Source of the DNA: Escherichia coli
GTDB lineage: Bacteria; Pseudomonadota; Gammaproteobacteria; Enterobacterales; Enterobacteriaceae
Reading direction: 5' to 3' (one strand)
DNA length: 64,000 nucleotides
NCBI RefSeq assembly: GCF_029227855.1
Contig: NZ_CP074356.1
Of this stretch, positions 11,165-64,000 are shown one piece after another. The notes under the pieces were generated by a model. It made no database searches and had not been told where the DNA came from. It worked only from the letters and a program-made list of their open reading frames with translations. Position numbers and translations under genes: made by a program. Position 1 is the first letter of the stretch, and every line of letters begins with the position of its first letter.

Positions 11165-11635
11165 TTCGCCCGCAGCCATTACTGACCGCGGGCGAAAGTG
11201 TAAAGCAGGTGCCTTACCATCCTGACCTGACAACCGGATATGCGGGGATTGCTCCCCGCACAACGGCTACTTCTTCGGTTCGTAAGCGAGAACAGCCTTA
11301 AACTCAATATTACGTTCCTTCACCGTAAACTCACACAGCGAGTCGCGGACCAGAAGCGTAAATCCCAGCACCGTTAAACACAGCACTATGACTGCCACAA
11401 GGGCATATTTCGTCAGCATGTTTATATTGCCTCCATGCGAAGAAGGGACTACCATCCGAGTTGTTCAGGTTTGGGTAGGTAGCCCCAGGGTTGATAGAAA
11501 TATCGTCCTGGGGCTTCATCTTTCCAGACCTCAGAGTTAACCTGAAACCGGAAAGCTTCAGGCACCCGCCGTTATCTTACCCTTCCTCAGCAAAATAGCT
11601 GTTTATTTATACAGTGAATCCTGTTTCGGACTTCT
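11165..11635. repeat. Tandem repeat unit 1 carrying a hok/sok-type type I toxin-antitoxin locus
   Basis: About 470 bp that realigns with 11670-12137 at roughly 95% identity by eye; contains hok copy 1. Confidence 0.85.
11267..11419 (-). CDS. hokE: Hok-family small membrane toxin (HokE-like), copy 1
   Basis: 50-aa product [50 protein letters not shown]; an overlapping mok-frame ORF is present (11331..11519). Confidence 0.85.
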
Positions 11636-11669
11636 GTTGGCAAAACTGATCATTGCCCTTAAAACGACA

Positions 11670-12137
11670 TCGCCCGCAGCCATTGCTGACCGCGGGCGAA
11701 AGTGTAAAGCAGGTGCCTTACCACCCTGACCTGACAACCGGATATGCGGGGATTACTCCCCGCACAACGGCTACTTCTTCGGTTCGTAAGCGAGAACAGC
11801 CTTAAACTCAATATTACGTTCCTTCACCGTAAACTCACACAGCGAGTCTCCGACCAGAAGCGTAAATCCCAGTACCGTCAAACACAGCACTATGACTGCC
11901 ACAAGGGCATATTTCGTCAGCATGTTTATATTGCCTCCATGCGAAGAAGGGACTACCATCCAAATTGTCTGGTTTGGAGTGGCAGCCCCAGGGTTGATAG
12001 AAATATCTCCTGGGGCTTCATCTTTCCAGACCTCAGAGTAAACCTGAAACCGGAAAGCTTCAGGCACCCGCCGTTATCTTACCCTTCCTCAGCAAAATGG
12101 CTGTTTATTTATACAGTGAGTCCTGTTTCGGACTTCT
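11670..12137. repeat. Tandem repeat unit 2 carrying a second hok/sok-type locus
   Basis: Direct repeat of 11165-11635 with scattered substitutions. Confidence 0.85.
11771..11923 (-). CDS. Hok-family small membrane toxin, copy 2
   Basis: 50-aa product identical to copy 1 except G for R at the LLV(G/R)DSL position. Confidence 0.8.
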
Positions 12138-12354
12138 CACTCCTAATTTGATCAACTGAAGCTGAACCCGTTTTTTTCTGCATGCCTCAATCGTCAAAAT
12201 TCTTCGCCACCAGCCAGCTCTGCCATAACTTGTCACATTGCAAAAGTAGCCAAATTGCTTCAGTCACCATCACCAAAAAAAAGAAACATTCCAGAACTTC
12301 CGCATCTCGCCCAGCCGCTCCGACTTCTATACTGAATAGAAAACGCCAACATAA

Positions 12355-16442: not shown

Positions 16443-16901
16443 TTACTTACGGCCCGTAAACGGGCTGCCCGGATAGGGAATCGATAACTGCTCTCCCATT
16501 TTATCCTCTTCAAGCTGGTGCTTTATGTAATCCTGTATCTTCGCCGTGTTCTTACCCACTGTATCGACGTAGTACCCTCTGCACCAGAACTCCCTGTTCC
16601 TGTATTTGAATTTCAAATCACCAAACTGCTCGTAAAGCATCAGACTGCTTTTCCCTTTCAGATATCCCATAAACCCGGATACGCTCATTTTGGGCGGGAT
16701 CTCCACAAGCATATGGATATGATCTGCACAGCATTCAGCTTCCAGAATCCGTACGCTTTTCCACTCACACAGCTTTCTCAAAATACTGCCTATTGCTCTA
16801 CGCTTCTCTCTGTAGAACACCTGTCTTCGGTATTTTGGCGCAAAAACTATGTGATATTTACAGTTCCATCGGGTGTGCGCTAAGCTCTTTTCGTTCCCCA
16901 T
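16443..16901 (-). CDS. tnpA: IS200 transposase TnpA (HUH Y1 transposase)
   Basis: Product MGNEKSLAHTRWNCKYHIVFAPKYRRQVFY...HIHMLVEIPPKMSVS...; HxH motif and catalytic Tyr context. Confidence 0.9.
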   Translation of the reverse strand: MGNEKSLAHTRWNCKYHIVFAPKYRRQVFYREKRRAIGSILRKLCEWKSVRILEAECCADHIHMLVEIPPKMSVSGFMGYLKGKSSLMLYEQFGDLKFKYRNREFWCRGYYVDTVGKNTAKIQDYIKHQLEEDKMGEQLSIPYPGSPFTGRK

Positions 16902-27734: not shown

Positions 27735-29636
27735 ATGTCAACCGGATTACGTTTCACACTGGAAGTGGACGGCCTGCCGCCGGATGCTTTTGCGGTGGTT
27801 TCCTTTCATCTGAACCAGTCACTCTCTTCGCTCTTTTCCCTCGATCTCTCCCTGGTCAGCCAGCAGTTTCTCTCCCTTGAATTTGCGCAGGTGCTGGACA
27901 AAATGGCCTACCTGACGATATGGCAGGGCGATGAAGTACAGCGCCGGGTGAAAGGCGTGGTGACCTGGTTTGAACTCGGGGAGAACGACAAAAACCAGAT
28001 GCTGTACAGCATGAAGGTGCACCCGCCGCTGTGGCGTGCCGGTCTGCGCCAGAACTTCCGTATCTTCCAGAACGAGGACATCAAAAGCATCCTCGGCACG
28101 ATGTTGCAGGAAAACGGGGTGACCGAATGGAGTCCGCTGTTCAGCGAGCCGCATCCTTCCCGTGAGTTTTGTGTCCAGTACGGTGAGACTGATTACGATT
28201 TCCTGTGCCGGATGGCGGCGGAGGAAGGCATCTTCTTTTATGAGGAGCATGCTTACAAAAGTACCGACCAGAGCCTGGTGCTGTGCGACACAGTCCGCCA
28301 TCTGCCCGAATCTTTTGAAATCCCATGGAACCCGAACACCCGTACCGAGGTGAGCACCCTCTGCATCAGCCAGTTCCGCTACAGCGCACAAATCCGCCCT
28401 TCTTCCGTGGTGACCAAAGACTACACCTTTAAACGCCCCGGCTGGGCCGGACGTTTTGAACAGGAAGGCCAGCACCAGGACTACCAGCGCACGCAGTATG
28501 AAGTGTATGACTACCCCGGACGTTTCAAGGGTGCCCACGGGCAGAACTTTGCCCGCTGGCAGATGGACGGCTGGCGAAACAATGCAGAAACCGCGCGGGG
28601 AATGAGTCGCTCGCCGGAGATATGGCCGGGACGACGAATTGTGCTGACGGGGCATCCGCAGGCGAACCTGAACCGGGAATGGCAGGTGGTGGCAAGTGAA
28701 CTGCACGGCGAACAGCCACAGGCGGTGCCAGGACGGCAGGGAGCGGGGACGGCGCTGGAGAACCATTTTGCGGTGATCCCGGCAGACAGAACATGGCGAC
28801 CACAGCCGTTGCTGAAACCGCTGGTCGACGGCCCGCAGAGCGCTGTCGTGACAGGACCGGCAGGCGAGGAAATCTTCTGCGACGAACATGGTCGCGTGCG
28901 GGTGAAGTTCAACTGGGACCGCTATAACCCGTCAAACCAGGACAGTTCGTGCTGGATCCGTGTGGCACAGGCGTGGGCAGGCACCGGTTTTGGCCACCTG
29001 GCGATACCGCGTGTGGGTCAGGAGGTGATTGTAGACTTCCTCAACGGCGATCCGGACCAGCCGATCATTATGGGGCGCACCTACCACCAGGAAAACCGCA
29101 CCCCCGGCAGCCTGCCGGGAACAAAGACGCAGATGACCATCCGCTCCAAAACGTACATGGGCAGCGGATTTAATGAGCTGAAGTTTGATGATGCGACAGG
29201 GAGAGAACAGGTCTACATCCACGCGCAGAAGAACATGGATACCGAAGTGCTCAACGACCGTACCACCACCGTAAAACACGATCACCACGAAACCGTAAAA
29301 AATGACCAGACGGTCACGATCCAGGAAGGTAACCGCCTTCTTACGGTGGAAAAAGGCCACAAGATCACCGGAGTACTGAAAGGGTCTTTATCTGAGGATG
29401 TCTTTCAGGACAGAGGCACGATTGCCGGTTCGGTGCATGTTGACGCTGTAAACAATGGTGGCGAAGGCGACGGTATACAGGCTTATACGGCGATTAAGGA
29501 AATTTTGCTGGCCGTGGAGGAAAGCAAAATTGCGCTGACGCCGGATGGCATTCAGCTACAGGTCGGGGAATCGACGGTAATCAGGCTGTCGAAGGATGGC
29601 ATCACCATCGTGGGCGGTTCTGTTTTCATCAACTGA
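27735..29636 (+). CDS. vgrG: Type VI secretion spike protein VgrG (Rhs-element Vgr protein)
   Basis: 633-aa ORF MSTGLRFTLEVDGLPPDAFAVVSFHLNQSLSSLFSLDLSL...; gp27/gp5-like organisation, immediately upstream of Eag/PAAR-Rhs genes. Confidence 0.88.
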   Translation: MSTGLRFTLEVDGLPPDAFAVVSFHLNQSLSSLFSLDLSLVSQQFLSLEFAQVLDKMAYLTIWQGDEVQRRVKGVVTWFELGENDKNQMLYSMKVHPPLWRAGLRQNFRIFQNEDIKSILGTMLQENGVTEWSPLFSEPHPSREFCVQYGETDYDFLCRMAAEEGIFFYEEHAYKSTDQSLVLCDTVRHLPESFEIPWNPNTRTEVSTLCISQFRYSAQIRPSSVVTKDYTFKRPGWAGRFEQEGQHQDYQRTQYEVYDYPGRFKGAHGQNFARWQMDGWRNNAETARGMSRSPEIWPGRRIVLTGHPQANLNREWQVVASELHGEQPQAVPGRQGAGTALENHFAVIPADRTWRPQPLLKPLVDGPQSAVVTGPAGEEIFCDEHGRVRVKFNWDRYNPSNQDSSCWIRVAQAWAGTGFGHLAIPRVGQEVIVDFLNGDPDQPIIMGRTYHQENRTPGSLPGTKTQMTIRSKTYMGSGFNELKFDDATGREQVYIHAQKNMDTEVLNDRTTTVKHDHHETVKNDQTVTIQEGNRLLTVEKGHKITGVLKGSLSEDVFQDRGTIAGSVHVDAVNNGGEGDGIQAYTAIKEILLAVEESKIALTPDGIQLQVGESTVIRLSKDGITIVGGSVFIN

Positions 29637-29663
29637 TTCACTCAGATTATCAGGGAGTATTTT

Positions 29664-30125
29664 ATGCAGTTCACTTTTAATGAAGGCCACATTCAACTGC
29701 CGTCTCAATGGCAGGATCAGTCAATGCAGGTCCTGGTGTCCACAGATAACAGTGGCATCAACCTGGTCATTACCCGCGAAGCCGTTCCACAGGGAACCCT
29801 GACACCAGAGCTGTACCAGGAAACGCTGGCGCTGTACCAGGGCAAACTTGATGGGTACACCGAACATGCCTGCCGGGAAATCACTCTGGCAGAGGCCCCG
29901 GCCTGGCTGCTGGATTATTCCTGGAACGGTCCGGAAGATGAGGGGAATCAGGGGCGGATTAGCCAGATAGCCGTATTCCAGCGGCGTGGAGATACGCTGC
30001 TGACCTTCACTTTCAGCACCTCCTTATCCCTGAAGAACAGTCAAAAGACGATGCTGCTGGAGGTGATAAAGAGCTTCACCCCGTTGCCACCGGAGAATGA
30101 CATCCAAAAGGACCAGCCGCGCTGA
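29664..30125 (+). CDS. DUF1795/Eag-family T6SS effector chaperone (EagR-like)
   Basis: 153-aa ORF placed between vgrG and a prePAAR-Rhs gene, the canonical position of Eag chaperones; assignment from context and overall similarity, no HMM run. Confidence 0.7.
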   Translation: MQFTFNEGHIQLPSQWQDQSMQVLVSTDNSGINLVITREAVPQGTLTPELYQETLALYQGKLDGYTEHACREITLAEAPAWLLDYSWNGPEDEGNQGRISQIAVFQRRGDTLLTFTFSTSLSLKNSQKTMLLEVIKSFTPLPPENDIQKDQPR

Positions 30126-30144
30126 CATAAACGAGGGATAACAC

Positions 30145-33100
30145 ATGAGTGAAGGACCAGGCGGGCCACAGGGAGCGACCGCAGGCGGTACGCTGGCAAT
30201 GCGAATGCTGTCACAGCAGGCGATGGTCGCCAGCCAGATGAAACGGGCAGCCAACGACAAAGCCATTGCACAGATGCTGGCATCAAAAAAGTCCGGCCCC
30301 CCCGCCGCCAGGCTGGGCGATGAAATTCAGCACAAGAGTTTTTTGGGGGCGCTGGCAGGGGCCGTGCTGGGGGCGATAGTGACCATCGCAGAAGGTTGCC
30401 TGATTATGGCCGCCTGTGCCACCGGCCCTTATGCGCTGGTTCTGGTGCCTGCGCTGATGTATGCCAGCTATAAGGCGAGTGATTATGTGGAGGAGAAACA
30501 GAACCAGCTTGAATCATGGATAAACAGCTTTTGTGACACGGACGGCGCCATCAATACCGGTTCTGAAAATGTAAACATTAACGGAAAGCCCGCTGCCAGG
30601 GCCGCCGTCACCCTTCCCCCTCCTCCCCCACCTGGAGCAATACCTGAAATCCCACAGGGGGAACCCTCATGGGGTGATATTGCCACTGACCTGCTTGAAT
30701 CGGCAGCGGAAAAAGCAGTACCACTGGCGAAGGCCTGGGGGAACGCTGTTATCACCCTGACGGACAGCAATGCCGGTTTTATGGATCGCGTCAGCGCCGG
30801 CGCATCGCTTCTGTTTCCCGCCGGTCCGGTATTAATGGAGTTTGCCACCATGGTGGGCGGGCGTGGCGAAATCAAAAAAGATGTGGATTTCCCGGAAGCC
30901 GGTGAGGACACGGCGCTCTGCGACAAGGAGAACAAACCACCGAGGATAGCCCAGGGCAGCAGCAACGTCTTTATCAACAATCAGCCCGCCGCGCGCAAGG
31001 GCGACAAACTGGAGTGCAGCGCGGCAATCGTGGAAGGTTCGCCGGACGTCTTTATTGGCGGTGAACAGGTGACCTATCTGGATATCCAGCCAGAGTTCCC
31101 GCCGTGGCAGAGAATGATCCTGGGGGGAATAACGATAGCCAGCTATCTTCTGCCGCCAGCGGGACTGCTGGGAAAACTGAAGAATCTGGCGAGACTCGGC
31201 AAACTGGGGAACCTGCTGGGGAAAAGCGGGAAGCTGCTGGGGGCAAAGCTCGGCGCGTTGCTGGGAAAAACAGATAAGTCGTTAAAAAGTATTGCCAATA
31301 AAGTCATCAGATGGGTAACAGATCCTGTCGATCCGGTAACCGGCGCGTACTGCGACGAACGTACCGACTTTACGCTGGGCCAGACCCTCCCCCTCTCCTT
31401 CACCCGTTTCCACAGTTCTGTACTGCCGCTGCATGGCCTGACCGGCGTGGGCTGGAGCGACTCCTGGAGCGAATACGCCTGGGTGCGTGAACAGGGAAAC
31501 CGGGTGGATATCATCAGCCAGGGAGCCACGCTGAACTTCGCCTTCGACGGTGACAGTGATACGGCGGTTAACCCGTATCACGCCCAGTACATTCTGCGCC
31601 GCCGCGATGATTATCTGGAGCTGTTCGACAGGGATGCACTGAGCAGCCGCTTCTTTTATGACGCCTTTCCGGGAATGCGTCTGCGCCACCCGGTGACTGA
31701 CGATACCAGCGATGACCGCCTGGCACACAGCCCCAATGACCGGATGTACATGCTGGGCGGGATGAGCGACACCGCCAGCAACCGCATCACGTTTGAGCGC
31801 GACAGCCAGTACCGGATCACAGGTGTCAGTCACACCGACGGGATCCGGCTTAAACTGACGTACCACGCCAGCGGCTACCTGAAAGCCATTCACCGCACGG
31901 ATAACGGCATACAGACGCTGGCGACCTACGAACAGGATGCGCGGGGGCGGCTGACAGAAGCGGATGCGCGGCTGGACTACCACCTGTTTTATGAGTACGA
32001 CGCTGCGGACCGGATCATCCGCTGGTCCGATAACGACCAGACGTGGAGCCGTTTCACCTACGATGAACAGGGCCGGTGCGTGAATGTCACCGGGGCGGAG
32101 GGCTATTACAACGCCACGCTGGACTATGGTGACGGCTGCACCACCGTGACGGACGGCAAGGGCATTCACCGTTATTACTATGATCCTGACGGCAATATTC
32201 TGCGGGAAGCAGCGCCGGACGGCAGCACCACCACGTATGAATGGGATGAATTCCATCACCTGCTGGCCCGTCACTCCCCTGCCGGGCGGGTGGAGAAATT
32301 TGAATACAACGCCGCACACGGTCAGTTAAGCCGTTACACGGCGGCAGACGGCGCGGAGTGGCAGTACCGCTATGATGAGCGCGGCCTGCTCAGCAACATC
32401 ACCGACCCTGCCGGGCAGACGTGGACACAGCAGTGTGATGAACGCGGCCTGCCGGTAAGTCTGGTGTCGCCACAGGGCGAAGAGACCCGGCTGGCATACA
32501 CCGCTCAGGGGCTGCTGTCGGGAATATTCCGCCAGGATGAACGGCGTCTGGGCATAGAGTACGACCACCACAACCGGCCGGAAACACTCACCGACGTGAT
32601 GGGCCGTGAACACCACACCGAATACAGCGGTCACGACCTGCCGGTGAAGATGCGCGGCCCCGGCGGTCAGTCAGTGCGGTTGCAGTGGCAGCAGCACCAT
32701 AAACTGAGTGGCCTTGAGCGCACTGGCACCGGCGCGGAAGGGTTCAGCTATGACCGCCACGGCAACCTGCTGGCCTGGACGGACGGCAATGGTGTTGTCT
32801 GGACAATGGAGTACGGCCCGTTCGATTTGCCGGTGGCGCGAACGGACGGTGAAGGCCACCGCTGGCAGTACCGCTATGATAAAGACACGCTGCAACTGAC
32901 AGAAGTCATTAACCCGCAGGGTGAGTCATATCTTTATGTTCTGGATAACTGCGGCCGGGTGACGGAAGAGCATGACTGGGGCGGCGTGGTCTGGCGTTAC
33001 CGCTATGACGCCGATGGCCTGTGTACCGCCAGGGTCAACGGCCTGGAGGAAACCATCCTCTACAGCCGGGACGACGCAGGCCGCCTGGCAGAAGTCATCA

Positions 33101-34974
33101 CGCCGGAAGGCAAAACGCAGTATGCGTATGACAAATCCGGCAGGCTGACGGGTATCTTCAGCCCGGACGGCACATCACAGCGCACCGGCTATGACGAACG
33201 CGGGCGGGTGAATGTCACCACTCAGGGCCGACGGGCCATTGAATACCACTACCCCGATGAACACACCGTCATCCGCTGTATCCTGCCACCGGAAGATGAA
33301 CGCGACAGACACCCCGGTGAATCCCTGCTGAAAACCACGTACCGCTACAACGCAGCCGGAGAACTGGCAGAGGTCATCCTGCCGGAGGATGAGACGCTGA
33401 CGTTCAGCCGTGATGAGGCAGGACGTGAAGTGCTCCGGCACAGTAACCGGGGTTTTGCCTGTGAGCAGGGCTGGAATGCAGCCGGTCAGCTTACCAGCCA
33501 GCGCGCCGGACTTTTCCCGGCAGAAGCCACATGGGGCGGGCTGCTCCCCTCACTGGTACGGGAGTACCGTTACGACAGCGCGGGCAATGTGTCGGCTGTC
33601 ACCAGCCGGGAAGATTACGGACGGGAAACTCGCCGGGAGTACCGGCTGGACCGGAACGGCCAGGTCACGGCGGTGACAGCCTCAGGCACCGGGCTGGGCT
33701 ATGGCGAAGGCGATGAGTCCTATGGCTATGACAGTTGTGGCTACCTGAAGGCGCAGTCTGCGGGCAGGCACCGGATAAGTGAAGAGACTGAGCGGTATGC
33801 CGGAGGCCACCGGCTGAAACAGGCCGGAAACACGCAGTATGACTATGACGCCGCAGGCCGGATGGTCAGCCGCACCAGACACCGTAACGGCTATCGCCCG
33901 GAAACAGAGCGGTTCCGGTGGGACAGCCGGGACCAGCTGACCGGGTATTGCAGCGCACAGGGTGAACAGTGGGAATACCGCCACGACGCCAGCGGCAGAC
34001 GGACGGAAAAACGCTGCGACCGGAAGAAAATCCGCTTCACGTACCTGTGGGACGGCGACAGTATTGCGGAAATCCGGGAATACCGCGATGATAAACTGTA
34101 CAGCGTAAGGCACCTGGTGTTTAACGGCTTTGAGCTGATAAGCCAGCAGTTTAGCCGGGTACGGCAGCCGCACCCGTCCGTGGCCCCGCAGTGGGTGACG
34201 CGGACGAATCATGCGGTGAGCGATCTGACGGGCCGTCCGCTGATGCTCTTTAACAGTGAAGGTAAAACCGTCTGGCGACCGGGACAGACCAGCCTGTGGG
34301 GGCTGGCACTCAGCCTGCCCGCGGACACCGGCTACCCGGACCCGCGCGGGGAACTGGACGCGGAAGCCGACCCCGGCCTGCTGTATGCAGGACAGTGGCA
34401 GGATGCGGAATCCGGGCTGTGCTATAACCGGTTCCGGTATTACGAGCCGGAAACAGGGATGTACCTGGTGAGTGATCCGCTGGGGTTGCTGGGGGGTGAG
34501 CAGACTTACCGGTATGTGCCGAATCCGTGTGGGTATGTTGATCCTTTGGGATTAGCAACATGTCCCATAATCAGACAACGGGTGCTGGCTAACCTTGAAG
34601 CCAGTCGGGCAGCAAGGGCTGCATCTAATTTTGGTAAGAAAAATATCTATGATTTTATCAAGGCAACTCAATCTGCTATCCCTGGCACCTCTATCCCAAA
34701 ATCTTTTGAGATTATAACTGCTAATGGTACTTTCTGGGTACACCCAAATGCTACAAAACATATGGCTGAATATTTGACTCGGAACGGTCTCTCACATTCA
34801 ACTTCTGTAGAGAGCCAAATAATGTTAACAAGTTTTCACGAAGCTGTAAGTTTGGCTAGTGCTCAAGGTATAAAGTATGAAGAAATGATGAATGTTGGCG
34901 GCTGGGAACTAGTATTTAGTCAAGCTAAATCTGACTCGGCTTTATCAGTTATTAAACATGCTCTTTATAAATGA
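30145..34974 (+). CDS. prePAAR/PAAR-domain Rhs polymorphic toxin (T6SS effector) with variable C-terminal toxin domain
   Basis: 1609 aa; prePAAR motif AARLGDEIQH near the N-terminus with hydrophobic helices; PAAR-like segment (GDKLECSAAIVEGSPDVFIGGE); many YD/RHS repeats; PxxxxDPxGL core-end motif (NPCGYVDPLGL) followed by about 150 aa of divergent C-terminus. Confidence 0.9.
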   Translation: MSEGPGGPQGATAGGTLAMRMLSQQAMVASQMKRAANDKAIAQMLASKKSGPPAARLGDEIQHKSFLGALAGAVLGAIVTIAEGCLIMAACATGPYALVLVPALMYASYKASDYVEEKQNQLESWINSFCDTDGAINTGSENVNINGKPAARAAVTLPPPPPPGAIPEIPQGEPSWGDIATDLLESAAEKAVPLAKAWGNAVITLTDSNAGFMDRVSAGASLLFPAGPVLMEFATMVGGRGEIKKDVDFPEAGEDTALCDKENKPPRIAQGSSNVFINNQPAARKGDKLECSAAIVEGSPDVFIGGEQVTYLDIQPEFPPWQRMILGGITIASYLLPPAGLLGKLKNLARLGKLGNLLGKSGKLLGAKLGALLGKTDKSLKSIANKVIRWVTDPVDPVTGAYCDERTDFTLGQTLPLSFTRFHSSVLPLHGLTGVGWSDSWSEYAWVREQGNRVDIISQGATLNFAFDGDSDTAVNPYHAQYILRRRDDYLELFDRDALSSRFFYDAFPGMRLRHPVTDDTSDDRLAHSPNDRMYMLGGMSDTASNRITFERDSQYRITGVSHTDGIRLKLTYHASGYLKAIHRTDNGIQTLATYEQDARGRLTEADARLDYHLFYEYDAADRIIRWSDNDQTWSRFTYDEQGRCVNVTGAEGYYNATLDYGDGCTTVTDGKGIHRYYYDPDGNILREAAPDGSTTTYEWDEFHHLLARHSPAGRVEKFEYNAAHGQLSRYTAADGAEWQYRYDERGLLSNITDPAGQTWTQQCDERGLPVSLVSPQGEETRLAYTAQGLLSGIFRQDERRLGIEYDHHNRPETLTDVMGREHHTEYSGHDLPVKMRGPGGQSVRLQWQQHHKLSGLERTGTGAEGFSYDRHGNLLAWTDGNGVVWTMEYGPFDLPVARTDGEGHRWQYRYDKDTLQLTEVINPQGESYLYVLDNCGRVTEEHDWGGVVWRYRYDADGLCTARVNGLEETILYSRDDAGRLAEVITPEGKTQYAYDKSGRLTGIFSPDGTSQRTGYDERGRVNVTTQGRRAIEYHYPDEHTVIRCILPPEDERDRHPGESLLKTTYRYNAAGELAEVILPEDETLTFSRDEAGREVLRHSNRGFACEQGWNAAGQLTSQRAGLFPAEATWGGLLPSLVREYRYDSAGNVSAVTSREDYGRETRREYRLDRNGQVTAVTASGTGLGYGEGDESYGYDSCGYLKAQSAGRHRISEETERYAGGHRLKQAGNTQYDYDAAGRMVSRTRHRNGYRPETERFRWDSRDQLTGYCSAQGEQWEYRHDASGRRTEKRCDRKKIRFTYLWDGDSIAEIREYRDDKLYSVRHLVFNGFELISQQFSRVRQPHPSVAPQWVTRTNHAVSDLTGRPLMLFNSEGKTVWRPGQTSLWGLALSLPADTGYPDPRGELDAEADPGLLYAGQWQDAESGLCYNRFRYYEPETGMYLVSDPLGLLGGEQTYRYVPNPCGYVDPLGLATCPIIRQRVLANLEASRAARAASNFGKKNIYDFIKATQSAIPGTSIPKSFEIITANGTFWVHPNATKHMAEYLTRNGLSHSTSVESQIMLTSFHEAVSLASAQGIKYEEMMNVGGWELVFSQAKSDSALSVIKHALYK

Positions 34975-35504
34975 CGATTATGCTTACATTAGAAAATGAA
35001 ACAAACTACAAAGATGTTGTTGTTAATATAGATGAATTTGTACCTTTTGATATAACTTTTGGAAAGGGGAGCGAACAGTGTTTGTACTGGAGAGGCGGCA
35101 ATGGTAAAAGTTCTTTGGTTGAAGTTGGGTTAAATATGTACAGCGGAGAAGTAAGTAACATCACACTAGCAAATATCGATTCAGGTGAAATTAACATTAC
35201 AGATGAGATGTTAGCCAACAACCTTCCTGAAATACAAGGGTCTGTTATATTTCAGACAAGCGAGTGGCTTAATAAAGACATTTCCGAATACTCAAACAGA
35301 TTTATTGATGATTTTGATTGCAATATCAAGTTAATAATTGGTAGTAATTACATTAAATTATTATTTAAAAAAGCAACAAATCCCATTTGTTATATCATTA
35401 ATAGGAATATAAGATTTGGTTTTTCTTTGAGTAGGGAACTTTCGACATTGGAAATATTAGACCTCAATCAAGAAAAATTAGATATTCTAAAGTTATTTAA
35501 ATAG
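34971..35504 (+). CDS. Putative cognate immunity protein for the Rhs C-terminal toxin
   Basis: 177-aa ORF whose ATG overlaps the rhs stop (ATGA); markedly AT-rich; position typical of rhsI genes. Confidence 0.7.
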   Translation: MTIMLTLENETNYKDVVVNIDEFVPFDITFGKGSEQCLYWRGGNGKSSLVEVGLNMYSGEVSNITLANIDSGEINITDEMLANNLPEIQGSVIFQTSEWLNKDISEYSNRFIDDFDCNIKLIIGSNYIKLLFKKATNPICYIINRNIRFGFSLSRELSTLEILDLNQEKLDILKLFK

Positions 35505-35983
35505 TTTTAGTGTTTGAAACTTACCGAGAGATGATAGCTATGAATGAATACAAAAACATCCATCTTGGAGGAAACAATGGAATGTTAATCCATTAAAAAA
35601 CATACTTCAATATCTTTAGTGAAGAAAGAGTTGTATGAAAGAAATATATCTTATGTGAGCGACATGATGCATGCTAATTATATTATTGGCCGGAAATTTT
35701 ATGATGATAGCAAAAAGGAGGGGTTATTTCTGTAAGAATGGATATACCCGCAGGGTTTGAACCAGACATTTATTTGTTGAAGTCTAAGATCCAAATGGAA
35801 GCATTTATATCCCTCAGATATTATGCGTTGACGGGTTGATAAAGATACTTTTAGAGGGTTAATAAATGGAGAACGTATAATAAATCTCTTAAACAAACTA
35901 TAACCTGTACTAATGAAAAAAATGGGAATAGATAAGTTAATAGCCTATTCTAAAAATGGTAAAGTGGTTTTACTTCCAAAATA

Positions 35984-36427
35984 ATGGAGTTTAGTATGAA
36001 AATCGAAGCTAATTCCCTTACTCATCCCTATGACTACAACGCCTCACTGAACAATTATTTACATTATTTTGAGAATTTCTCTCGTAATGACTGGAATAAA
36101 GATTCATGTGGAGGATATTTTACTTTTAGAGATGATGACAGAGAGTGTGTTTTGTTTTTTGTGAATTATGGTGATAATTTTTCATTGCGCTATGATTGTA
36201 CACAAAGTTCTGATGGAATAGTGTCATGCTGGTATAGTAACCATGAAGATGATAAAATGAATATCATCGTCGATGCTGATACAGAACAATTTATCCCTTT
36301 AGGTTCTTGCTTACCTCCTGATATTACTTTATCAGTAATAAAAGATTTTTTCAAAAATCCTTTAGAGAAATCAAAAAAAGTAAAATGGATGAATGCAGAT
36401 GACATTGACTGGTCATCTGTGTATTAA
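35984..36427 (+). CDS. Hypothetical protein, possible orphan immunity gene
   Basis: 147-aa ORF in AT-rich DNA downstream of the toxin/immunity pair; no recognisable motif. Confidence 0.4.
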   Translation: MEFSMKIEANSLTHPYDYNASLNNYLHYFENFSRNDWNKDSCGGYFTFRDDDRECVLFFVNYGDNFSLRYDCTQSSDGIVSCWYSNHEDDKMNIIVDADTEQFIPLGSCLPPDITLSVIKDFFKNPLEKSKKVKWMNADDIDWSSVY

Positions 36428-37318
36428 AGTTGGATTGGATAATTATCTGTTTCAAAAATCATTAAATTTAGAACCTATCTGTTCAACAGAGCTGCCTTGA
36501 ACAGCAGGTTCTTTTATGATGTCCAGGAGCGAATATGCCTGTGATGTCTGGCACTCAGCATCTGACTGACCTGGACTACTGATCCTACTCACACAGGGAG
36601 CTAGACCTGGAAGCAACCTACTGTAAGCAGTGCAGTAGCAGCCCACCTCACATCAGTCCTTGCAAGGTGTGGGCCTTTGTGATCTTGCTCTGTATTGCTG
36701 AGATCCTCAGGAAGGACTCGAAATTTAATCAGGAAGGCCGTTGCTAAAAATCAAAAAATAAATTCAAGAGCAATTTCTAAAACTTTTGAATCTACTGTAT
36801 CGGATGAGGTTTTCACTCCTTTCCAAAAGGTGAGTTTTCAAGCATTCAAGTTTCTGTTATGACCAAAACTTCACCATTTAACACTAATCCGAGTATTATG
36901 TTACCATGAAGAAAAAAGATATTAGATTTGCAATATCCATTAACTCCAACTCAAGTAAGATAGAATTAATGGAAAAATTAAAAACATAATCCCAGGGCTT
37001 ATTGAAATAACTCCCAGTGCATTAAGAGAAGAAAAAACATGGTAGTTATTGAAGATAATGATCTTTATGACTCTATAAAAGCAGAGGGAGTTGATGGATG
37101 GATGTATTATAAATTCATATTATCCATATTCCCATTAAAGGGAGTAGACACAACATTAGAATATCAACGGAAATTATCTTTTCTTTTCTTAAAGAAATTA
37201 AAAGATGCGGGTCTGTTAGGTGAACTTATATGCGAGGATGATTTTCATGACTGATGACCTCTACATATATCCTCAGTTCGTGGCTGGTATTACATGATCT
37301 GACAGGGAAAGATCGTAG

Positions 37319-37613
37319 CGAAATCAAAAAAGACGTGGATTTCCCGGAAGCCGGTGAAGACACGGCGCTCTGCGACAAGGAGACTAAACCGCCGAGGATA
37401 GCCCAGGGCAGCAGCAACGTTTTTATCAACAATCAGCCTGCCGCACGCCAGGGAGACAAACTGGAGTGCAGTGCGGCGATCGTGGAAGGTTCGCCGGACG
37501 TCTTTATTGGGGGTGAGCAGGTCACCTATCTGGATATCCAGCCGGAGTTCCCGCCGTGGCAGAGAATGATCCTGGGGGGAATAACGATAGCCAGCTATCT
37601 TCTGCCGCCAGCG
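37319..37613 (+). pseudogene. Duplicated fragment of the Rhs PAAR-domain region
   Basis: 295 bp nearly identical to 30867-31161 of the full-length rhs gene; encodes EIKKDVDFPEAGEDTALCDK...ITIASYLLPPA inside ORF 37254..37631; lacks the N-terminus and core. Confidence 0.85.
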
Positions 37614-37750
37614 CAGGGAAAGATCACGTAACGCTGCTTTTTTGTACTAAATAATTCGCACTAAATGTTCAATAATTGAGATATTCCTTATTACCTAAAT
37701 ACAGTTCCACCAAGATTACCTAAACCCAAATGAGGTAAAAGATAGTGGGT

Positions 37751-38112
37751 ATGAATAAAAATGAAATCCATTTCCCTATAGGATATGGTTGGTTGAATGA
37801 AAAAAAATTATTGGCACCAGTGAATTTAGCCAATTAGAACCATGGTTTTATCTAGATGAGAACAGGTGTTTTTTTGCGAATAAAAAATGGCCAAATGTCA
37901 TAGGTGAACAATTATTCGCTTTTGCTAAACGTCAAGATAATGATGAATTGGCTTGTTTCAAAATTAATGAATCTGGAGTCTGTGAGGGTGTTTATTTAAT
38001 TAATGGGTGGACTCCTAACGGGTTTGATATTATACAATTTTACCCTGATTTTTGGGAATGGGTACATTTGGTTATACAAGATGTCTCGGAGTGGATTGAT
38101 AATAAAGGATAA
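37751..38112 (+). pseudogene. Frameshifted small gene (immunity-protein-like) with an A8 tract at the frame switch
   Basis: ATG at 37751 reads 27 codons to a stop; a shifted frame from about 37813 continues for 99 codons to TAA at 38110-38112; the shift coincides with gaaaaaaaatt at 37798-37808. Confidence 0.45.
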
Positions 38113-38141
38113 TTTGAAACAAAAGTAAAAAACCGCCTTCA

Positions 38142-38840
38142 TTGAAGGTAACGTGGAGTGGTGGGCGGAGCAGCCTGCCCGCAGACACAGACTACCCGGA
38201 CCCGCGCGGGGAGCGGGACGCGGAAGCCGACCCCGGCCTGCTGTATGCAGGACAGTGGCAGGATGCGGAATCCGGACTGTGCTATAACCGGTTCCGGTAT
38301 TACGAGCCGGAAACCGGGATGTACCTGGTGAGTGATCCCCTGGGGTTGCTGGGGGGTGAGCAGACTTACCGGTATGTGCCTAATCCTAGTGGGTATGTTG
38401 ATCCTCTGGGATTAGCAACGTGTCCTATACTCAGACAGTGGGCGCTGACTAACCTTGAAGCCAGTCGGGCAGCAAGGGCTGCATCTAATTTTGGTAAGCC
38501 TCTGGTCCAGCGAAATAAAACGATTGGCGATAAAGTAAGGGATATGATTGCCAAAGAGAGGGGAACCACTCTAATTGAACAAAATTATAGAGTGACAGGA
38601 GGATTAAAGCGTATTGACGTTGTTGATGGAGTAACGGGTATAGAATCTAAAGTCGATCGAACAGGGTTAACAACCCGAGTACGGCAAGAGGTAGCGCGGG
38701 ATATTAAGATTTTGAGAAGTGAGCAACTTGATCAAATTGAATGGGTGTTTACAAGAAGTTCAACTACAGGGAAGATTGGGCCAACTAAACCACTTGAAGA
38801 TCTTTTAAATAAACATGGTATACCGATTATTTATCGATAA
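38142..38840 (+). CDS. Orphan Rhs C-terminal fragment: core end (DPxGL) plus alternative C-terminal toxin domain, candidate PD-(D/E)xK nuclease
   Basis: 38171-38498 nearly identical to 34311-34638 of the full rhs; the C-terminal domain diverges after ...AASNFGK; contains RIDVVDG...GIESK; the ORF begins at TTG and has no PAAR or core of its own. Confidence 0.7.
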   Translation: MKVTWSGGRSSLPADTDYPDPRGERDAEADPGLLYAGQWQDAESGLCYNRFRYYEPETGMYLVSDPLGLLGGEQTYRYVPNPSGYVDPLGLATCPILRQWALTNLEASRAARAASNFGKPLVQRNKTIGDKVRDMIAKERGTTLIEQNYRVTGGLKRIDVVDGVTGIESKVDRTGLTTRVRQEVARDIKILRSEQLDQIEWVFTRSSTTGKIGPTKPLEDLLNKHGIPIIYR

Positions 38841-38851
38841 GGAGTGATAGT

Positions 38852-39409
38852 GTGAAACTCAAACCGATTGGTGACTTTTTAAACAAAAATGGGTTTATAA
38901 AAAATGGTAACAATGATTTTTATAAAGTTCATGATAAGTTTGTAAATTGTATAAATTTTCAAAAAAAGAGTACAGGTGATATTTTTTTTATAAACACAGG
39001 TGTTCATCCTGTGTTCGAAAATTTTTGCAATGAACCACCGAAAAAAGAAATAGATTGTTACATCCGTAACCGTGTGTGTGATGGACTAAGTATATCTTTG
39101 CTGCATTCTTTTGAAGGTAGTGAGTTTGTTATCAGTGAGATAAAAAACAAAGCGTTTTGTTTTTTTGAATACTTTGATTCATTGAATAAAATATTCGATG
39201 CTATTCGTGTTGTAGATATTGAAGAGAGAAATATTTGCGATGAGCTAAGTGGTGTAAGCAGCGTAAGATTAGCTTTGATGTGTATGAACTACCAGTATGA
39301 GAAAAAAAAATTTAGCCTTGTTTCTGATTTTGCGAACTATGGTCTTGCTATATCTAGAGGCCCGGTACCGAAAAAAGCATTTAAGGATATGATAAAAATA
39401 ACAGAGTGA
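38852..39409 (+). CDS. Putative immunity protein for the orphan Rhs C-terminal toxin
   Basis: 185-aa AT-rich ORF with GTG start 11 bp after the orphan toxin stop and GGAG upstream. Confidence 0.6.
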   Translation: MKLKPIGDFLNKNGFIKNGNNDFYKVHDKFVNCINFQKKSTGDIFFINTGVHPVFENFCNEPPKKEIDCYIRNRVCDGLSISLLHSFEGSEFVISEIKNKAFCFFEYFDSLNKIFDAIRVVDIEERNICDELSGVSSVRLALMCMNYQYEKKKFSLVSDFANYGLAISRGPVPKKAFKDMIKITE

Positions 39410-39434
39410 TACCTAATCCGGTGTAATACTTGCT

Positions 39435-39646
39435 GCCTGTGTACCGCGAAGATTAACGGCCGGGAGGAAACTATTCTCTACAACCGGGACGCCACAGGCC
39501 GCCTGGCAGAAGTCATCACGCCGGAAGGCAAAACGCAGTATGCGTATGACAAATCCGGCAGGCTGACGGGTATCTTCAGCCCGGACGACACATCACAGCG
39601 CACCGGCTATGAAGAACGCGGGCGGGTGAATGTCACCACTCAGGGC
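39435..39646 (+). pseudogene. Internal Rhs core fragment
   Basis: About 210 bp at roughly 90% identity to 33018-33228 of the full-length rhs; truncated at both ends, abutting the ISAs1 left end. Confidence 0.8.
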
Positions 39647-40936
39647 AGGGAAAGATCATCCAAAGTACACTTTTTGTACTAAATAATTCGCATTTTATGT
39701 TTAAAAATGGAGATATTCCTCATTACCTAAAGCTGTTTTTTATTGCTTATACATGATCAAATACTCCTTACATAATTAAGGAGAACAAAATGGAACTTAA
39801 AAAATTGATGGAACATATTTCTATTATCCCCGATTACAGACAAGCCTGGAAAGTGGAACATAAATTATCGGATATTCTGCTGTTGACTATTTGTGCCGTT
39901 ATTTCGGGTGCAGAAGGCTGGGAAGATATAGAGGATTTTGGGGAAACACATCTCGATTTTTTGAAGCAATATGGTGATTTTGATAATGGTATTCCTGTTC
40001 ACGATACCATCGCCAGAGTTATATCCTGTATCAGTCCTTCAAAATTTCACGAGTGTTTTATTAACTGGATGCGAGATTGCCATACTTCAGATGATAAAGA
40101 CGTCATCGCAATTGATGGAAAAACACTCCGGCATTCTTATGACAAGAGTCGCCGCAAGGGAGCGATTCATGTCATTAGTGCGTTCTCAACAATGCACAGT
40201 CTGGTCATCGGACAGATCAGGACGGATGAGAAATCCAATGAAATTACAGCTATCCCTGAACTTCTTAACATGCTGGATATTAAAGGAAAAATCATCACAA
40301 CTGATGCGATGGGTTGCCAGAAAGATATTGCAGAGAAGATACAAAAACAGGGCGGTGATTATTTATTCGCTGTAAAAGGAAACCAGGGGCGGCTAAATAA
40401 AGCCTTCGAGGAAAAATTTCCGCTGAAAGAATTAAATAATCCAGAGCATGACAGTTACGCCATTAGTGAAAAGAGTCACGGCAGAGAAGAAATCCGTCTT
40501 CATATTGTTTGCGATGTCCCTGATGAACTTATTGATTTCACGTTTGAATGGAAAGGACTGAAGAAATTATGCGTGGCAGTCTCTTTTCGGTCAATAATAG
40601 CAGAACAAAAGAAAGAGCCAGAAATGACGGTCAGATATTATATCAGTTCTGCTGATTTAACCGCAGAGAAGTTCGCCACAGCAATCCGAAACCACTGGCG
40701 CGTGGAGAATAAGCTGCACTGGCGTCTGGACGTGGTAATGAATGAAGACGACTGCAAAATAAGAAGAGGAAACGCCGCAGAATTATTTTCAGGGATACGG
40801 CACATCGCTATTAATATTTTAACGAATGATAAGGTATTCAAGGCAGGGTTAAGACGTAAGATGCGAAAAGCAGCCATGGACAGAAACTATCTCGCGTCAG
40901 TCCTTGCGGGGAGCGGGCTTTCGTAATCTTGCCCTG
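39646..40936 (+). mobile_element. ISAs1-family insertion sequence (H-repeat element), about 1.29 kb
   Basis: Imperfect terminal inverted repeats CAGGGAAAGATCA (39646-39658) and TAATCTTGCCCTG (40924-40936); single transposase ORF; inserted in rhs-derived sequence. Confidence 0.75.
39790..40926 (+). CDS. ISAs1-family transposase (H-repeat-associated protein, YhhI/YdcC-like)
   Basis: 378-aa [55 protein letters not shown]...; the stop codon lies inside the right inverted repeat. Confidence 0.88.
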
Positions 40937-48200: not shown

Positions 48201-48277
48201 TGGCGCGCCCTGCAGGATTCGAACCTGCGGCCCACGACTTAGAAGGTCGTTGCTCTATCCAACTGAGCTAAGGGCGC
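48201..48277 (-). tRNA. argU: tRNA-Arg (anticodon UCU), argU
   Basis: Reverse complement reads GCGCCCTTAGCTCAGTTGGATAGAGCAACGACCTTCTAAGTCGTGGGCCGCAGGTTCGAATCCTGCAGGGCGCGCCA; cloverleaf with TCT anticodon and CCA end. Confidence 0.95.
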
Positions 48278-60415: not shown

Positions 60416-61479
60416 AACAGGTTTGCGTCCTCGGTAACGGGCAGTTAGGCCGTATGCTGCGTCAGGCAGGCGAACCGTTAGGCATTGCTGTCTGGCCAGT
60501 CGGGCTGGACGCTGAACCGGCGGCGGTGCCTTTTCAACAAAGTGTGATTACCGCTGAGATCGAACGCTGGCCGGAAACCGCATTAACCCGCGAGCTGGCG
60601 CGCCATCCGGCCTTTGTGAACCGCGATGTATTCCCGATTATTGCTGACCGTCTGACTCAGAAGCAGCTTTTCGATAAGCTCCACCTGCCGACCGCACCGT
60701 GGCAGTTACTTGCCGATCGCAGCGAGTGGCCTGCGGTGTTTGATCGTTTAGGTGAGCTGGCGATTGTTAAGCGTCGCACTGGTGGCTATGACGGACGCGG
60801 TCAATGGCGTTTACGCGCCGATGAAACCGAACAGTTACCGGCTGAATCCTACGGCGAATGTATTGTCGAGCAGGGCATAAACTTCTCTGGTGAAGTGTCG
60901 CTGGTTGGTGCGCGCGGCTTTGATGGCAGCACCGTATTTTATCCGCTGACGCATAACCTGCATCAGGACGGTATTTTACGCACCAGCGTCGCTTTCCCGC
61001 AGGCCAACGCGCAGCAACAGGCACAAGCTGAAGAGATGTTGTCGGCGATTATGCAGGAGCTGGGCTATGTGGGCGTGATGGCGATGGAGTGTTTTGTCAC
61101 CCCGCAAGGTCTGCTGATCAACGAACTGGCTCCGCGTGTGCATAACAGCGGTCACTGGACACAAAACGGTGCCAGCATCAGCCAGTTTGAGCTGCATCTG
61201 CGGGCGATTACCGATCTGCCGTTACCGCAACCGGTAGTGAATAGCCCGTCGGTGATGATCAACCTGATTGGTAGCGATGTGAATTATGACTGGCTGAAAC
61301 TGCCGCTAGTGCATCTGCACTGGTACGACAAAGAAGTCCGTCCGGGGCGTAAAGTGGGGCATCTGAATTTGACCGACAGCGACACATCGCGTCTGACCGC
61401 GACGCTGGAAGCCTTAATCCCGCTGCTGCCGCCGGAGTATGCCAGTGGCGTGATTTGGGCGCAGAGTAAGTTCAGTTAA
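60412..61479 (+). CDS. purK: N5-carboxyaminoimidazole ribonucleotide synthase PurK
   Basis: 355-aa ATP-grasp ORF; start overlaps the purE stop (ATGA). Confidence 0.96.
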
Positions 61480-61498
61480 CCTGGTGCACATATTCTTA

Positions 61499-61586
61499 CC
61501 GGATTCGGCGTGAACGCCTTATCCGGCTTAACGCTCCGGTACCCATTGTAGGCCTGATAAGACGCGTCAAGCGTCGCATCAGGCAC
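61499..61586. repeat. REP/BIME elements downstream of purK
   Basis: ggattcggcgtgaacgccttatccggc and gtaggcctgataagacgcgtcaagcgtcgcatcaggc REP palindromes. Confidence 0.8.
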
Positions 61587-61605
61587 AAATGTCTAATGCC
61601 TACGA

Positions 61606-62499
61606 CTACAGCGAAATACAGGTCCCCGCTTCGCCCGCCAGCGTCTCTTCAATCCGCGATAACGCCCCAATCCACGCAGGTTTGCCACGGCTTCTGACAT
61701 AGCCACTCACCGCCGTTACCTTCGGCCCCATCGAACCATCGGCTTTGGCAAATGGCGCTAACTCATCCGGTGTGGCACGGCGAATGGCGCGTTGCTGCGG
61801 CGTTCCCCAGTTTTCATAAACCGCGTCAGCATCGGTGAGGATCACCAGCCCATCGGCGTTAATCTGCTCAGCGAGCAACGCAGCGGCGAGATCTTTATCA
61901 ATCACTGCTTCACTCCCTGCTCCGTCATCCGTCACAGGCACACCGCCGCCGCCACTGCAAATCACCACATGCCCCTCTTTGAGCAACAACTCGATGGCTT
62001 CGCTGTCGAGAATTTTACGCGGTTGCGGAGACGCCACCACCCGGCGCAAATATTTACCATCACGTTTCATCTGCCAGCCGTAAGCCGCTTCCAGTGCCTC
62101 TTGTTCTTCTGGCTGATAAACCGGACCGATAAACTTCTCTGGCTGCAAAAACGCCGGATCATCAGGCGAAATCTCAATGCGCGTCAGCACCGTCGTCACG
62201 GGCGGCATCTGCGGCTGTGCGCTCAAGCTCTGCGCCAGCATATAGCCAATCATCCCCTGGCTTTCCGCCACCAGCACATCCAGCGGATACGGTTCTACCT
62301 CTTTCCACGCCAGATTCTGTAACGCCAGCAGCCCCACCTGCGGCCCGTTGCCGTGAACAATCGCCAGCCGATAAGAACGGGCCAGGCGCGCCAGCGCAGG
62401 TACAGCGCTGGCGATATTGCGATATTGATTTTCTGCCGTCAGCGCCTCACCGCGCTGAAGCAAGGCATTGCCCCCAAGAGCTACAACCAGTGTTTTCAT
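61606..62499 (-). CDS. ybcF: Carbamate kinase-like protein YbcF (ArcC paralogue)
   Basis: 297-aa [28 protein letters not shown]..., carbamate kinase fold signature. Confidence 0.9.
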
Positions 62500-63311
62500 G
62501 GTTTTCCTTGTAATAATTGTTGACCAAGCCAGAACCCCAGCAGCGTATCGGCCCCTGACGTGTGCCCCAGCGCCAGCAGCGAATCAATCGCAACAGCGGT
62601 ACGTTTCGGGCAACTCAGAGCATGGACAAAGTGCAGGAGTGGCGAGGCGAAATATCCTTGCGCGGCATAACGTAAATAACTGACGCTCACCGCTGTGGTA
62701 ACGAGTTGAAGATTGTCGGAACAGACAAAAAATGGGCGACCGGAGCGCGCATCTAAAGCGCCATAATACCAGGCCGCCAGCAGCATTCCGCTCAGCGTGT
62801 CATCATGACTCGGCGTTAATCCCGGACCTTTGCCCAGCCAGTGCCGCCAGTCGGTCTTCACGCCATTGAGCGCGGCCTGAAAACAGTGGCGAAACTGGCG
62901 TAATTCAGCAGGAAGCGGATCGCCTGCCGCCAACGCCAGTGGCCCGAAAAGCCCGGTTTCCTCCGCGCGTTGCATCCATGCAGCTGCAAGCGGTTGAGGA
63001 TGCGCAGGCGGCGTAATACGCAGCAAACAATAACGCTGTGGCTGTTTAACCGTGAAACGTCCGAGGCGAATCCCTTGAGCCACTACCTTCGGTCGTTCAT
63101 TGCCGCATAATCCACCGCATAACGCATCGAATTGCGCGCGTCGAAGCACCCATCCTCCGGGGCCGAAACCACTACCCTGACGATGCAGCGTTAACAGTTC
63201 GCCGCTTTCCGTCATCAGGTTAATCGCCCGCCGCCACACGCCCGCTAACCGCCAGGACTGGCGATAATTCGGTGCGCTACGGCTGGCAAGCAGAGGATGG
63301 ATGATTGTCAT
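62496..63311 (-). CDS. ylbF: DUF2877-family protein YlbF
   Basis: 271-aa product [24 protein letters not shown]...; the ORF-track start at 63404 is an upstream extension; 4-bp overlap with the ybcF start. Confidence 0.85.
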
Positions 63312-63321
63312 TGCGTGTTCC

Positions 63322-64000
63322 TCAAGCAATACCCATGCTTGCAGCCAGTGCTTCCAGCGCCTGTTCAAAGCACGCCAGCGGTGCCCGCACGGTGCCTGCG
63401 CCAATCTGCCCGATCCCCTCCTCTTTATGGGCGATACCGGTATTGATGAGTGGCGTAATGCCGGTTTCTACCACGCGACGAATGTCCAGCCCCAGGCACG
63501 CGCCCTGGAAATCCCAGCCGGGGATCTGCAACTGCATATTGCGTTCAAGGTAAATTTCCGCCATTTCTTCAGATACCGCTCTGGCCGCTTCCATGCCACC
63601 CGCACCGACAAAGCGTGTTACGCCAGGTGCGGCGATCATTGCCGCACCACCGATACCAAAGGTTTCGGTAATCGCGCTATCGCCCATATCCGGGTTCGCC
63701 TGCTCCTGCGAGAAGCCGGTGAAAAACAGACCTTGCGGAGTGTTTACAGGCGCAGTAAACCAGCGTTCACCCAGCCCGCTTACCCGAATCCCGAACATAT
63801 TGCCGTTGCGGGTCATAGCCGTAACGATGCTGCCTGCGCGGATCATCGCGCCTGCATCCATCGCCGCCTTGCAGTAAGCCATCGCGAGGTTGAGGAAGAA
63901 CTGATCGGTCACGCTGAGAAAATCCATCACTTCCGCGATGTGCTGTTTATCATGATCGAGGCGAGCAATTTGTGGGGCCAGCGCACGCATTAACAGTGCA
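63322..64000 (-). CDS. ylbE: DUF1116-family protein YlbE, C-terminal part (5' end beyond window)
   Basis: Open minus-strand frame running to the window edge; conserved fdrA-ylbE-ylbF-ybcF neighbourhood. Confidence 0.75.

Follow-up and report, generated by a model that had tools for sequence, protein, structure and literature searches.

The terminal part of the 64,000-nt stretch of Escherichia coli DNA analysed here (below, the window) contains three closely spaced genes, all on the minus strand. In the direction of transcription these are allG (ylbE), allH (ylbF) and allK (ybcF). The allG gene (63322..64000) runs past the end of the window and is represented by the C-terminal 225 of 419 residues; this fragment matches PF06545 (formerly DUF1116) with 147.7 bits, above the gathering score. 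The allH gene (62496..63311) encodes a protein of 271 aa, the candidate smallest subunit of oxamic transcarbamylase. It was identified by its translation, by PF11392 (formerly DUF2877; 100.5 bits at a cutoff of 25, residues 158-263) and by the RefSeq coordinates in E. coli JNEC-KY178. The allK gene (61606..62499) is the last gene of the operon. Its product, a predicted catabolic carbamate kinase of 297 aa, begins with MKTLVV and has a Pfam AA_kinase match; the assignment is based on the ORF and its translation, curated models and comparison with K-12. The earlier note had proposed the same domain content, and all three assignments agree with these matches.

The junctions between the genes were read directly from the sequence, and both the 4-bp overlap and the 10-bp distance reported in the earlier note are there. 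The allH and allK genes share the nucleotides ATGA (62496..62499, minus strand): the start codon ATG of allK occupies 62499-62497, and the stop codon TGA of allH occupies 62498-62496. An AAGGA motif is situated 5-6 nt upstream of the allK start. The stop codon TGA of allG (63322-63324) is separated from the start of allH by a spacer of exactly 10 nt, GGAACACGCA (63312..63321, minus strand). The Shine-Dalgarno box GAGGAA of allH overlaps the allG stop codon. The longest ORF of allH starts with a TTG at 63404, 93 nt ahead of the ATG annotated at 63311; translation from the latter yields the 271-aa product, same as in the RefSeq annotation. The ATGA overlap and the 10-nt spacer with their embedded ribosome-binding sites suggest that translation of these genes is coupled; such coupling would hold the AllF, AllG and AllH subunits and the AllK kinase in proportion.

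The overlap of allK and allH is identical in K-12 MG1655, and the 10-nt spacer has one substitution there. The allK and allH genes and the C-terminal part of allG differ from K-12 in 28, 28 and 18 nucleotides, respectively (96.6-97.4% identity over the three coding stretches), resulting in 3, 4 and 4 amino acid changes. So few amino acid changes at approximately 3% nucleotide divergence mean that all three frames are under purifying selection. Hence the overlaps are not annotation artefacts, a possibility raised in the earlier note.

A promoter/terminator scan of the region 61300-64000 gave no sign of internal transcription units: there were no promoter-like sites, and the two terminator-like sites are no more than were seen in shuffled sequences. 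The 3' end of the operon is the intergenic region between the convergent genes purK and allK (61480..61605), delimited from the sequence and comparison with K-12. No consensus intrinsic terminator was found in this region. It contains REP-like palindromes (GCCTGATAAGACGCG...CGCATCAGGC) and is 126 nt long as compared to 194 nt in K-12, where the repeat unit occurs once more.

The window is collinear with the genome of E. coli JNEC-KY178 (NZ_AP045174.1), with 4 mismatches in an ungapped overlay of 64 kb. JNEC-KY178 is a clinical isolate from Japan. In JNEC-KY178, the fdrA gene (allF, 555 aa) is located 9 nt upstream of ylbE. Beyond fdrA lie the divergent genes allD-allC-allE and then glxK, ybbY, allB and allW, as they do in K-12 MG1655. 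Judging from this near-identical genome, allF probably lies just past the end of the window. The gene layout of the oxamic transcarbamylase complex is thus seen in JNEC-KY178, with allF directly upstream, and is the same in K-12. The three genes listed in the earlier note as a cluster are indeed members of one unit; however, the unit has four genes, the first of which is fdrA/allF outside the window. At least 80% of a 2.6-kb query from the all region is present in 5418 of 5426 complete E. coli genomes. Most other complete E. coli genomes share only 95-99% identity with the 2.6-kb region, and K-12 about 97%, so the source of this DNA belongs to a less commonly sequenced lineage.

Several other features were observed elsewhere in the window. 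According to the annotation of JNEC-KY178, the region 27735-39673 contains a type VI secretion Vgr gene, a DcrB-related gene and a 4830-nt gene of an RHS core protein, followed by orphan RHS/PAAR fragments and small ORFs. This RHS island, located between cusS and nfrB, is closed by an ISAs1 transposase gene (39790-40926). Two hokE genes of type I toxins lie in tandem (11267-11419 and 11771-11923, in the region 11267-12159), and antisense to each there is an overlapping degraded ORF. An IS200C transposase gene was found at 16443-16901. The tRNA-Arg gene at 48201-48277, between envY and fimZ, has no adjoining prophage. In K-12, the corresponding neighbourhood carries the DLP12 prophage at argU.

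The product of allK scores 618.1 bits with the carbamate kinase equivalog NF006926 (cutoff 416) and 423.6 bits with TIGR00746 (cutoff 358.25), the models covering residues 1-296. It also matches carbamate kinases with solved structures: 8CRV (E 1.8e-89), 1E19 (5.7e-58) and 1B7B (2e-49). Purified YbcF of K-12 acts as a catabolic carbamate kinase and has been renamed AllK (Kim & Kim 2022, PMC9843812). It phosphorylates ADP with carbamoyl phosphate to give ATP, with Vmax about 1.8-1.9 U/mg and KM about 0.45 mM. In the same study fdrA-ylbE-ylbF-ybcF was shown by RT-PCR across all junctions to be one transcript, and the deletion of ybcF caused no growth or flux phenotype. As the protein from the window is 3 residues away from YbcF of K-12, it probably has the same activity.

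The other three proteins of the K-12 operon were studied by Kim & Kim (2024, PMC11326118), who showed that the purified complex FdrA-YlbE-YlbF is oxamic transcarbamylase catalysing the reaction oxalurate + Pi <-> oxamate + carbamoyl phosphate, and renamed the genes allF, allG and allH. The assay was run in the reverse direction, from oxamate and carbamoyl phosphate to oxalurate, because oxalurate was not available. The oxalurate formed by His-tagged AllF-AllG-AllH was detected by HPLC, LC-MS and NMR, and the KM for carbamoyl phosphate was 1.3 mM, that for oxamate 36.9 mM. The loss of any of fdrA, ylbE and ylbF abolished, or nearly abolished, the formation of oxamate from allantoin, and the trio together restored it (PMC11326118). 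More recently, the allF promoter was shown to be directly activated by AllS and ArcA, placing the operon under ArcA/AllS control (2025, PMC12535856). The gene-context prediction for the operon dates to 2012 (CanOE, PMC3364942). The proteins encoded in the window are likely to have the same activity as their K-12 orthologues.

Taken together, these data identify the region 61606-64000 as the distal part (allG', allH, allK) of the E. coli allFGHK operon, with a probability of about 0.93, since the frames and junctions were verified, the proteins passed the curated models and are 3-4 amino acids away from the assayed K-12 proteins, and the experiments are published. No data contradicting this identification were found. 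The K-12 operon (fdrA-ylbE-ylbF-ybcF, b0518-b0521) has the same genes in the same order and in the same position between purK and allD, with the same ATGA overlap and the same length of the spacer, the differences being only allelic. Apart from this, the window has fewer REP-like repeats in the purK-allK region, lacks allF and contains allG in part. The suggestion of the earlier note that tight coupling reflects a single pathway, linked to purine- or allantoin-derived carbamate metabolism, agrees with the experiments (PMC9843812, PMC11326118). Its view that no function had been established is outdated, as the activities were measured in these two studies. In Pfam, PF11392 and PF06545 are already named "oxamate carbamoyltransferase subunit AllH" and "AllG", respectively; the AllH name is used in recent RefSeq annotations, and the name allFGHK is used in environmental genomics papers.

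The conservation of the cluster was analysed by a genome scan seeded with AllG. The best 80 of at least 589 matches, those most similar to E. coli AllG, were considered, so that distant, yahG-like members are under-sampled. The 80 loci come from Enterobacterales, Orbaceae, Sutterella, Bacilli, Clostridia and Actinobacteria, as well as Chloroflexi, Alphaproteobacteria, Nitrospinae and SAR324. Sixty-two loci in which AllG is flanked by 4 kb or more in both directions were retained, and neighbours within 8 kb were counted. AllF was found near AllG in 60 of the 62 loci, AllK in 54 and AllH in 49; all three occur together in 45 loci. AllD was found in 35, AllC in 34 and AllE in 32 of the 62 loci. 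Thus the module is conserved across many phyla, and the view of the earlier note that ybcF, ylbF and ylbE form one co-conserved unit holds in this sample. In Rahnella and a related contig, the layout allD-allC-allE / allF-G-H-K is the same. Some distant loci from Chloroflexi and from actinobacterial metagenome contigs, among them L003 (a MAG of Anaerolineae) and the metagenome contigs L007 and L008, contain the trio of AllF, AllG and AllH with no carbamate kinase nearby. The neighbours of these trios are genes for amidase, amidohydrolase/Amidohydro_3, cyclase, molybdopterin oxidoreductase and nitrile hydratase, which suggests other substrates.

The spacing of the genes is a different matter. 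Conservation of the exact junctions beyond Escherichia was considered and rejected: in Citrobacter the distances are 9, 11 and 3 nt, and in other genera they reach approximately 100-190 nt, the spacing being kept only in close relatives, although start-site calls for distant AllH proteins are unreliable.

A fusion of AllF and AllG in a single protein of about 1000 aa is found in 17 of the 62 loci. It was observed in loci from Clostridia, Lactobacillales and Coriobacteriia (including L044, L055, L059, L069, L073 and L078). In 13 of the 62 loci no AllH was found within 8 kb of AllG even at E <= 10. Several of these are clostridial allE-allD-allFG-allK clusters with no detectable AllH homologue in the 8-kb vicinity. 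In view of these 13 loci, it is less certain for AllH than for AllF and AllG that it is an obligatory catalytic subunit.

Neither AllH nor AllG is matched by an NCBIfam model at E <= 0.001, and the naming comes only from Pfam. Full-length AllG from JNEC-KY178 scores 324.9 bits with PF06545. The AllH family is large, with approximately 12,000 clusters at 50% identity found in a profile search. Structure prediction of YlbF was proposed in the earlier note along with the neighbourhood analysis, and the AF2 model of AllH has pLDDT 96.4. However, a sequence search of PDB gave no match at E <= 1, and a Foldseek comparison of the model with PDB gave none at E <= 0.001. It follows that AllH has a confidently predicted structure with no apparent solved relative. 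An alignment of 67 diverse sequences, with the protein from the window as the reference, has two invariant motifs, GxGxGLTPxxDD (residues 160-171) and GHTSG (residues 249-253). The positions G160, G162, G164, T166, P167, D170, D171, G249, S252 and G253 are invariant.

One may ask, then, whether AllH is catalytic at all. It might instead assist, assemble or regulate an enzyme of AllF and AllG that transfers carbamoyl on its own. The fusion of AllF with AllG and the loci with no neighbouring AllH are consistent with this, as are the observations that AllH appeared substoichiometric in the purified complex, that a strain with the allH deletion still made some oxamate (1.2 mM as compared to 17.7 mM), and that allFG alone restored 7% (PMC11326118). 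On the other hand, oxamate falls by more than 90% if allH is lost, and allH on a plasmid restores 12.6 mM (PMC11326118). AllH is adjacent to AllG in 49 of the 62 loci, and the genomes of the remaining loci could encode AllH elsewhere. The strictly invariant polar motifs of AllH look like a ligand-binding or active-site signature. We consider an accessory AllH rather unlikely. The same doubtful standing applies to a wider version, in which an accessory or regulatory AllH attends a phosphorolytic core of AllF and AllG resembling succinyl-CoA synthetase (SCS), while the large AllH family, together with the paralogous products of yahEFG and yahI, marks a family of three-part phosphorolytic enzymes with substrates other than oxalurate. 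Even if this were true, the locus considered here would still not be new.

The relationship of AllF to SCS leads to another alternative, in which FdrA-YlbE-YlbF would act as an NDP-forming acyl-CoA synthetase (an oxamate:CoA ligase, for instance) and the transcarbamylase would be another protein. AllF contains the domains PF02629 (CoA_binding, 48.6 bits) and PF00549 (Ligase_CoA, 122.9 bits), common to the SCS alpha chain and NDP-forming acyl-CoA synthetases, and matches SCS alpha chains at E 1.4e-11. RefSeq still labels it "acyl-CoA synthetase FdrA", a hypothesis put forward by CanOE in 2012 (PMC3364942). However, the pure complex converts oxamate and carbamoyl phosphate to oxalurate with no need for CoA or nucleotide (PMC11326118), and oxamate builds up as the end product (PMC11326118, PMC9843812). 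AllF has neither GHAG nor HAG strings and thus lacks the GHAGA phosphohistidine loop, although local alignments with SCS alpha stop near residue 290, short of this loop. The only histidine conserved in at least 95% of 73 AllF sequences, H389 in the motif GxPHPMIDP, is placed differently from the histidine of GHAGA. The partners of AllF are AllG and AllH rather than an ATP-grasp beta subunit. Finally, the linkage of carbamate kinase to the module in 54 of the 62 loci fits an enzyme producing carbamoyl phosphate. An acyl-CoA synthetase is therefore very improbable, and the CoA-free activity of the purified complex largely refutes it.

The last alternative, that the overlaps are annotation artefacts or that the genes are decaying and do not form a functional unit, could draw on the TTG start of the longest ylbF ORF and on the ylbE frameshift that CanOE noted in the then-current K-12 sequence (a possible sequencing error, citing UniProt; PMC3364942), but it deserves practically no credence and is refuted by the junctions matching those of K-12 and preceded by good Shine-Dalgarno boxes, by purifying selection, by proteins that pass the curated family thresholds at full length, by ylbE being an intact 1260-nt CDS in the current K-12 and JNEC-KY178 records, and by transcripts detected across all junctions (PMC9843812).

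With the region identified as part of the allFGHK operon, its products can be compared with other systems. The reaction of AllFGH is of the same formal type, reversible carbamoyl transfer, as those of aspartate transcarbamylase PyrB (ATCase), ornithine transcarbamylase ArgF/ArgI (OTCase) and YgeW. As in the classical enzymes, carbamoyl is transferred between carbamoyl phosphate and amino or amide nitrogen. Catabolic OTCase, too, works together with a carbamate kinase to make ATP (PMC11326118). None of AllF, AllG, AllH and AllK has matches to the Pfam domains OTCace_N and OTCace, and this absence of the classical transcarbamylase domains agrees with the claim of a new type of transcarbamylase (PMC11326118).

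As to the possible mechanism, SCS converts an acyl-X compound and Pi to acyl phosphate. By analogy, both SCS and AllFGH would form acyl phosphate from an activated acyl compound and Pi. The SCS-alpha-like scaffold of AllF together with this chemistry suggests that phosphorolysis may occur on the core formed by AllF and AllG, AllH being the third subunit.

The same four families are found once more in E. coli, in the cluster yahE-yahF-yahG-(yahH)-yahI-yahJ (b0319-b0324). YahE belongs to the DUF2877/AllH family, YahF is FdrA-like, YahG belongs to the DUF1116/AllG family, and YahI is carbamate-kinase-like. The identity is 46% between YahG and AllG, 38% between YahF and AllF, 39% between YahI and AllK, and 25% between YahE and AllH. 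Unlike the all operon with its order F-G-H, the yah genes are arranged as H-F-G and adjoin the amidohydrolase gene yahJ instead of allantoin genes. In K-12 this cluster occupies positions 335925-342507 of NC_000913.3, outside the window. No functional study of yahE, yahF, yahG or yahI was found in the literature searched. The mechanism, the role of AllH and the yah paralogues are questions about the enzyme family rather than about the window.

The feature itself is already known, its function having been demonstrated by the experiments of 2022 and 2024. Between the 1960s and 2024 oxamic transcarbamylase remained an orphan activity, and this history makes the locus biologically notable, the discovery being already published and the names established in Pfam and RefSeq. 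In the oxamate branch of anaerobic allantoin catabolism, AllD oxidises ureidoglycolate to oxalurate, AllF-AllG-AllH uses phosphate to split oxalurate into oxamate and carbamoyl phosphate, and AllK transfers the phosphate to ADP, yielding ATP and carbamate, which decays to NH3 and CO2. Thus the operon completes the anaerobic use of allantoin in E. coli with its final two steps, which free the remaining nitrogen and yield one ATP per oxalurate by substrate-level phosphorylation.
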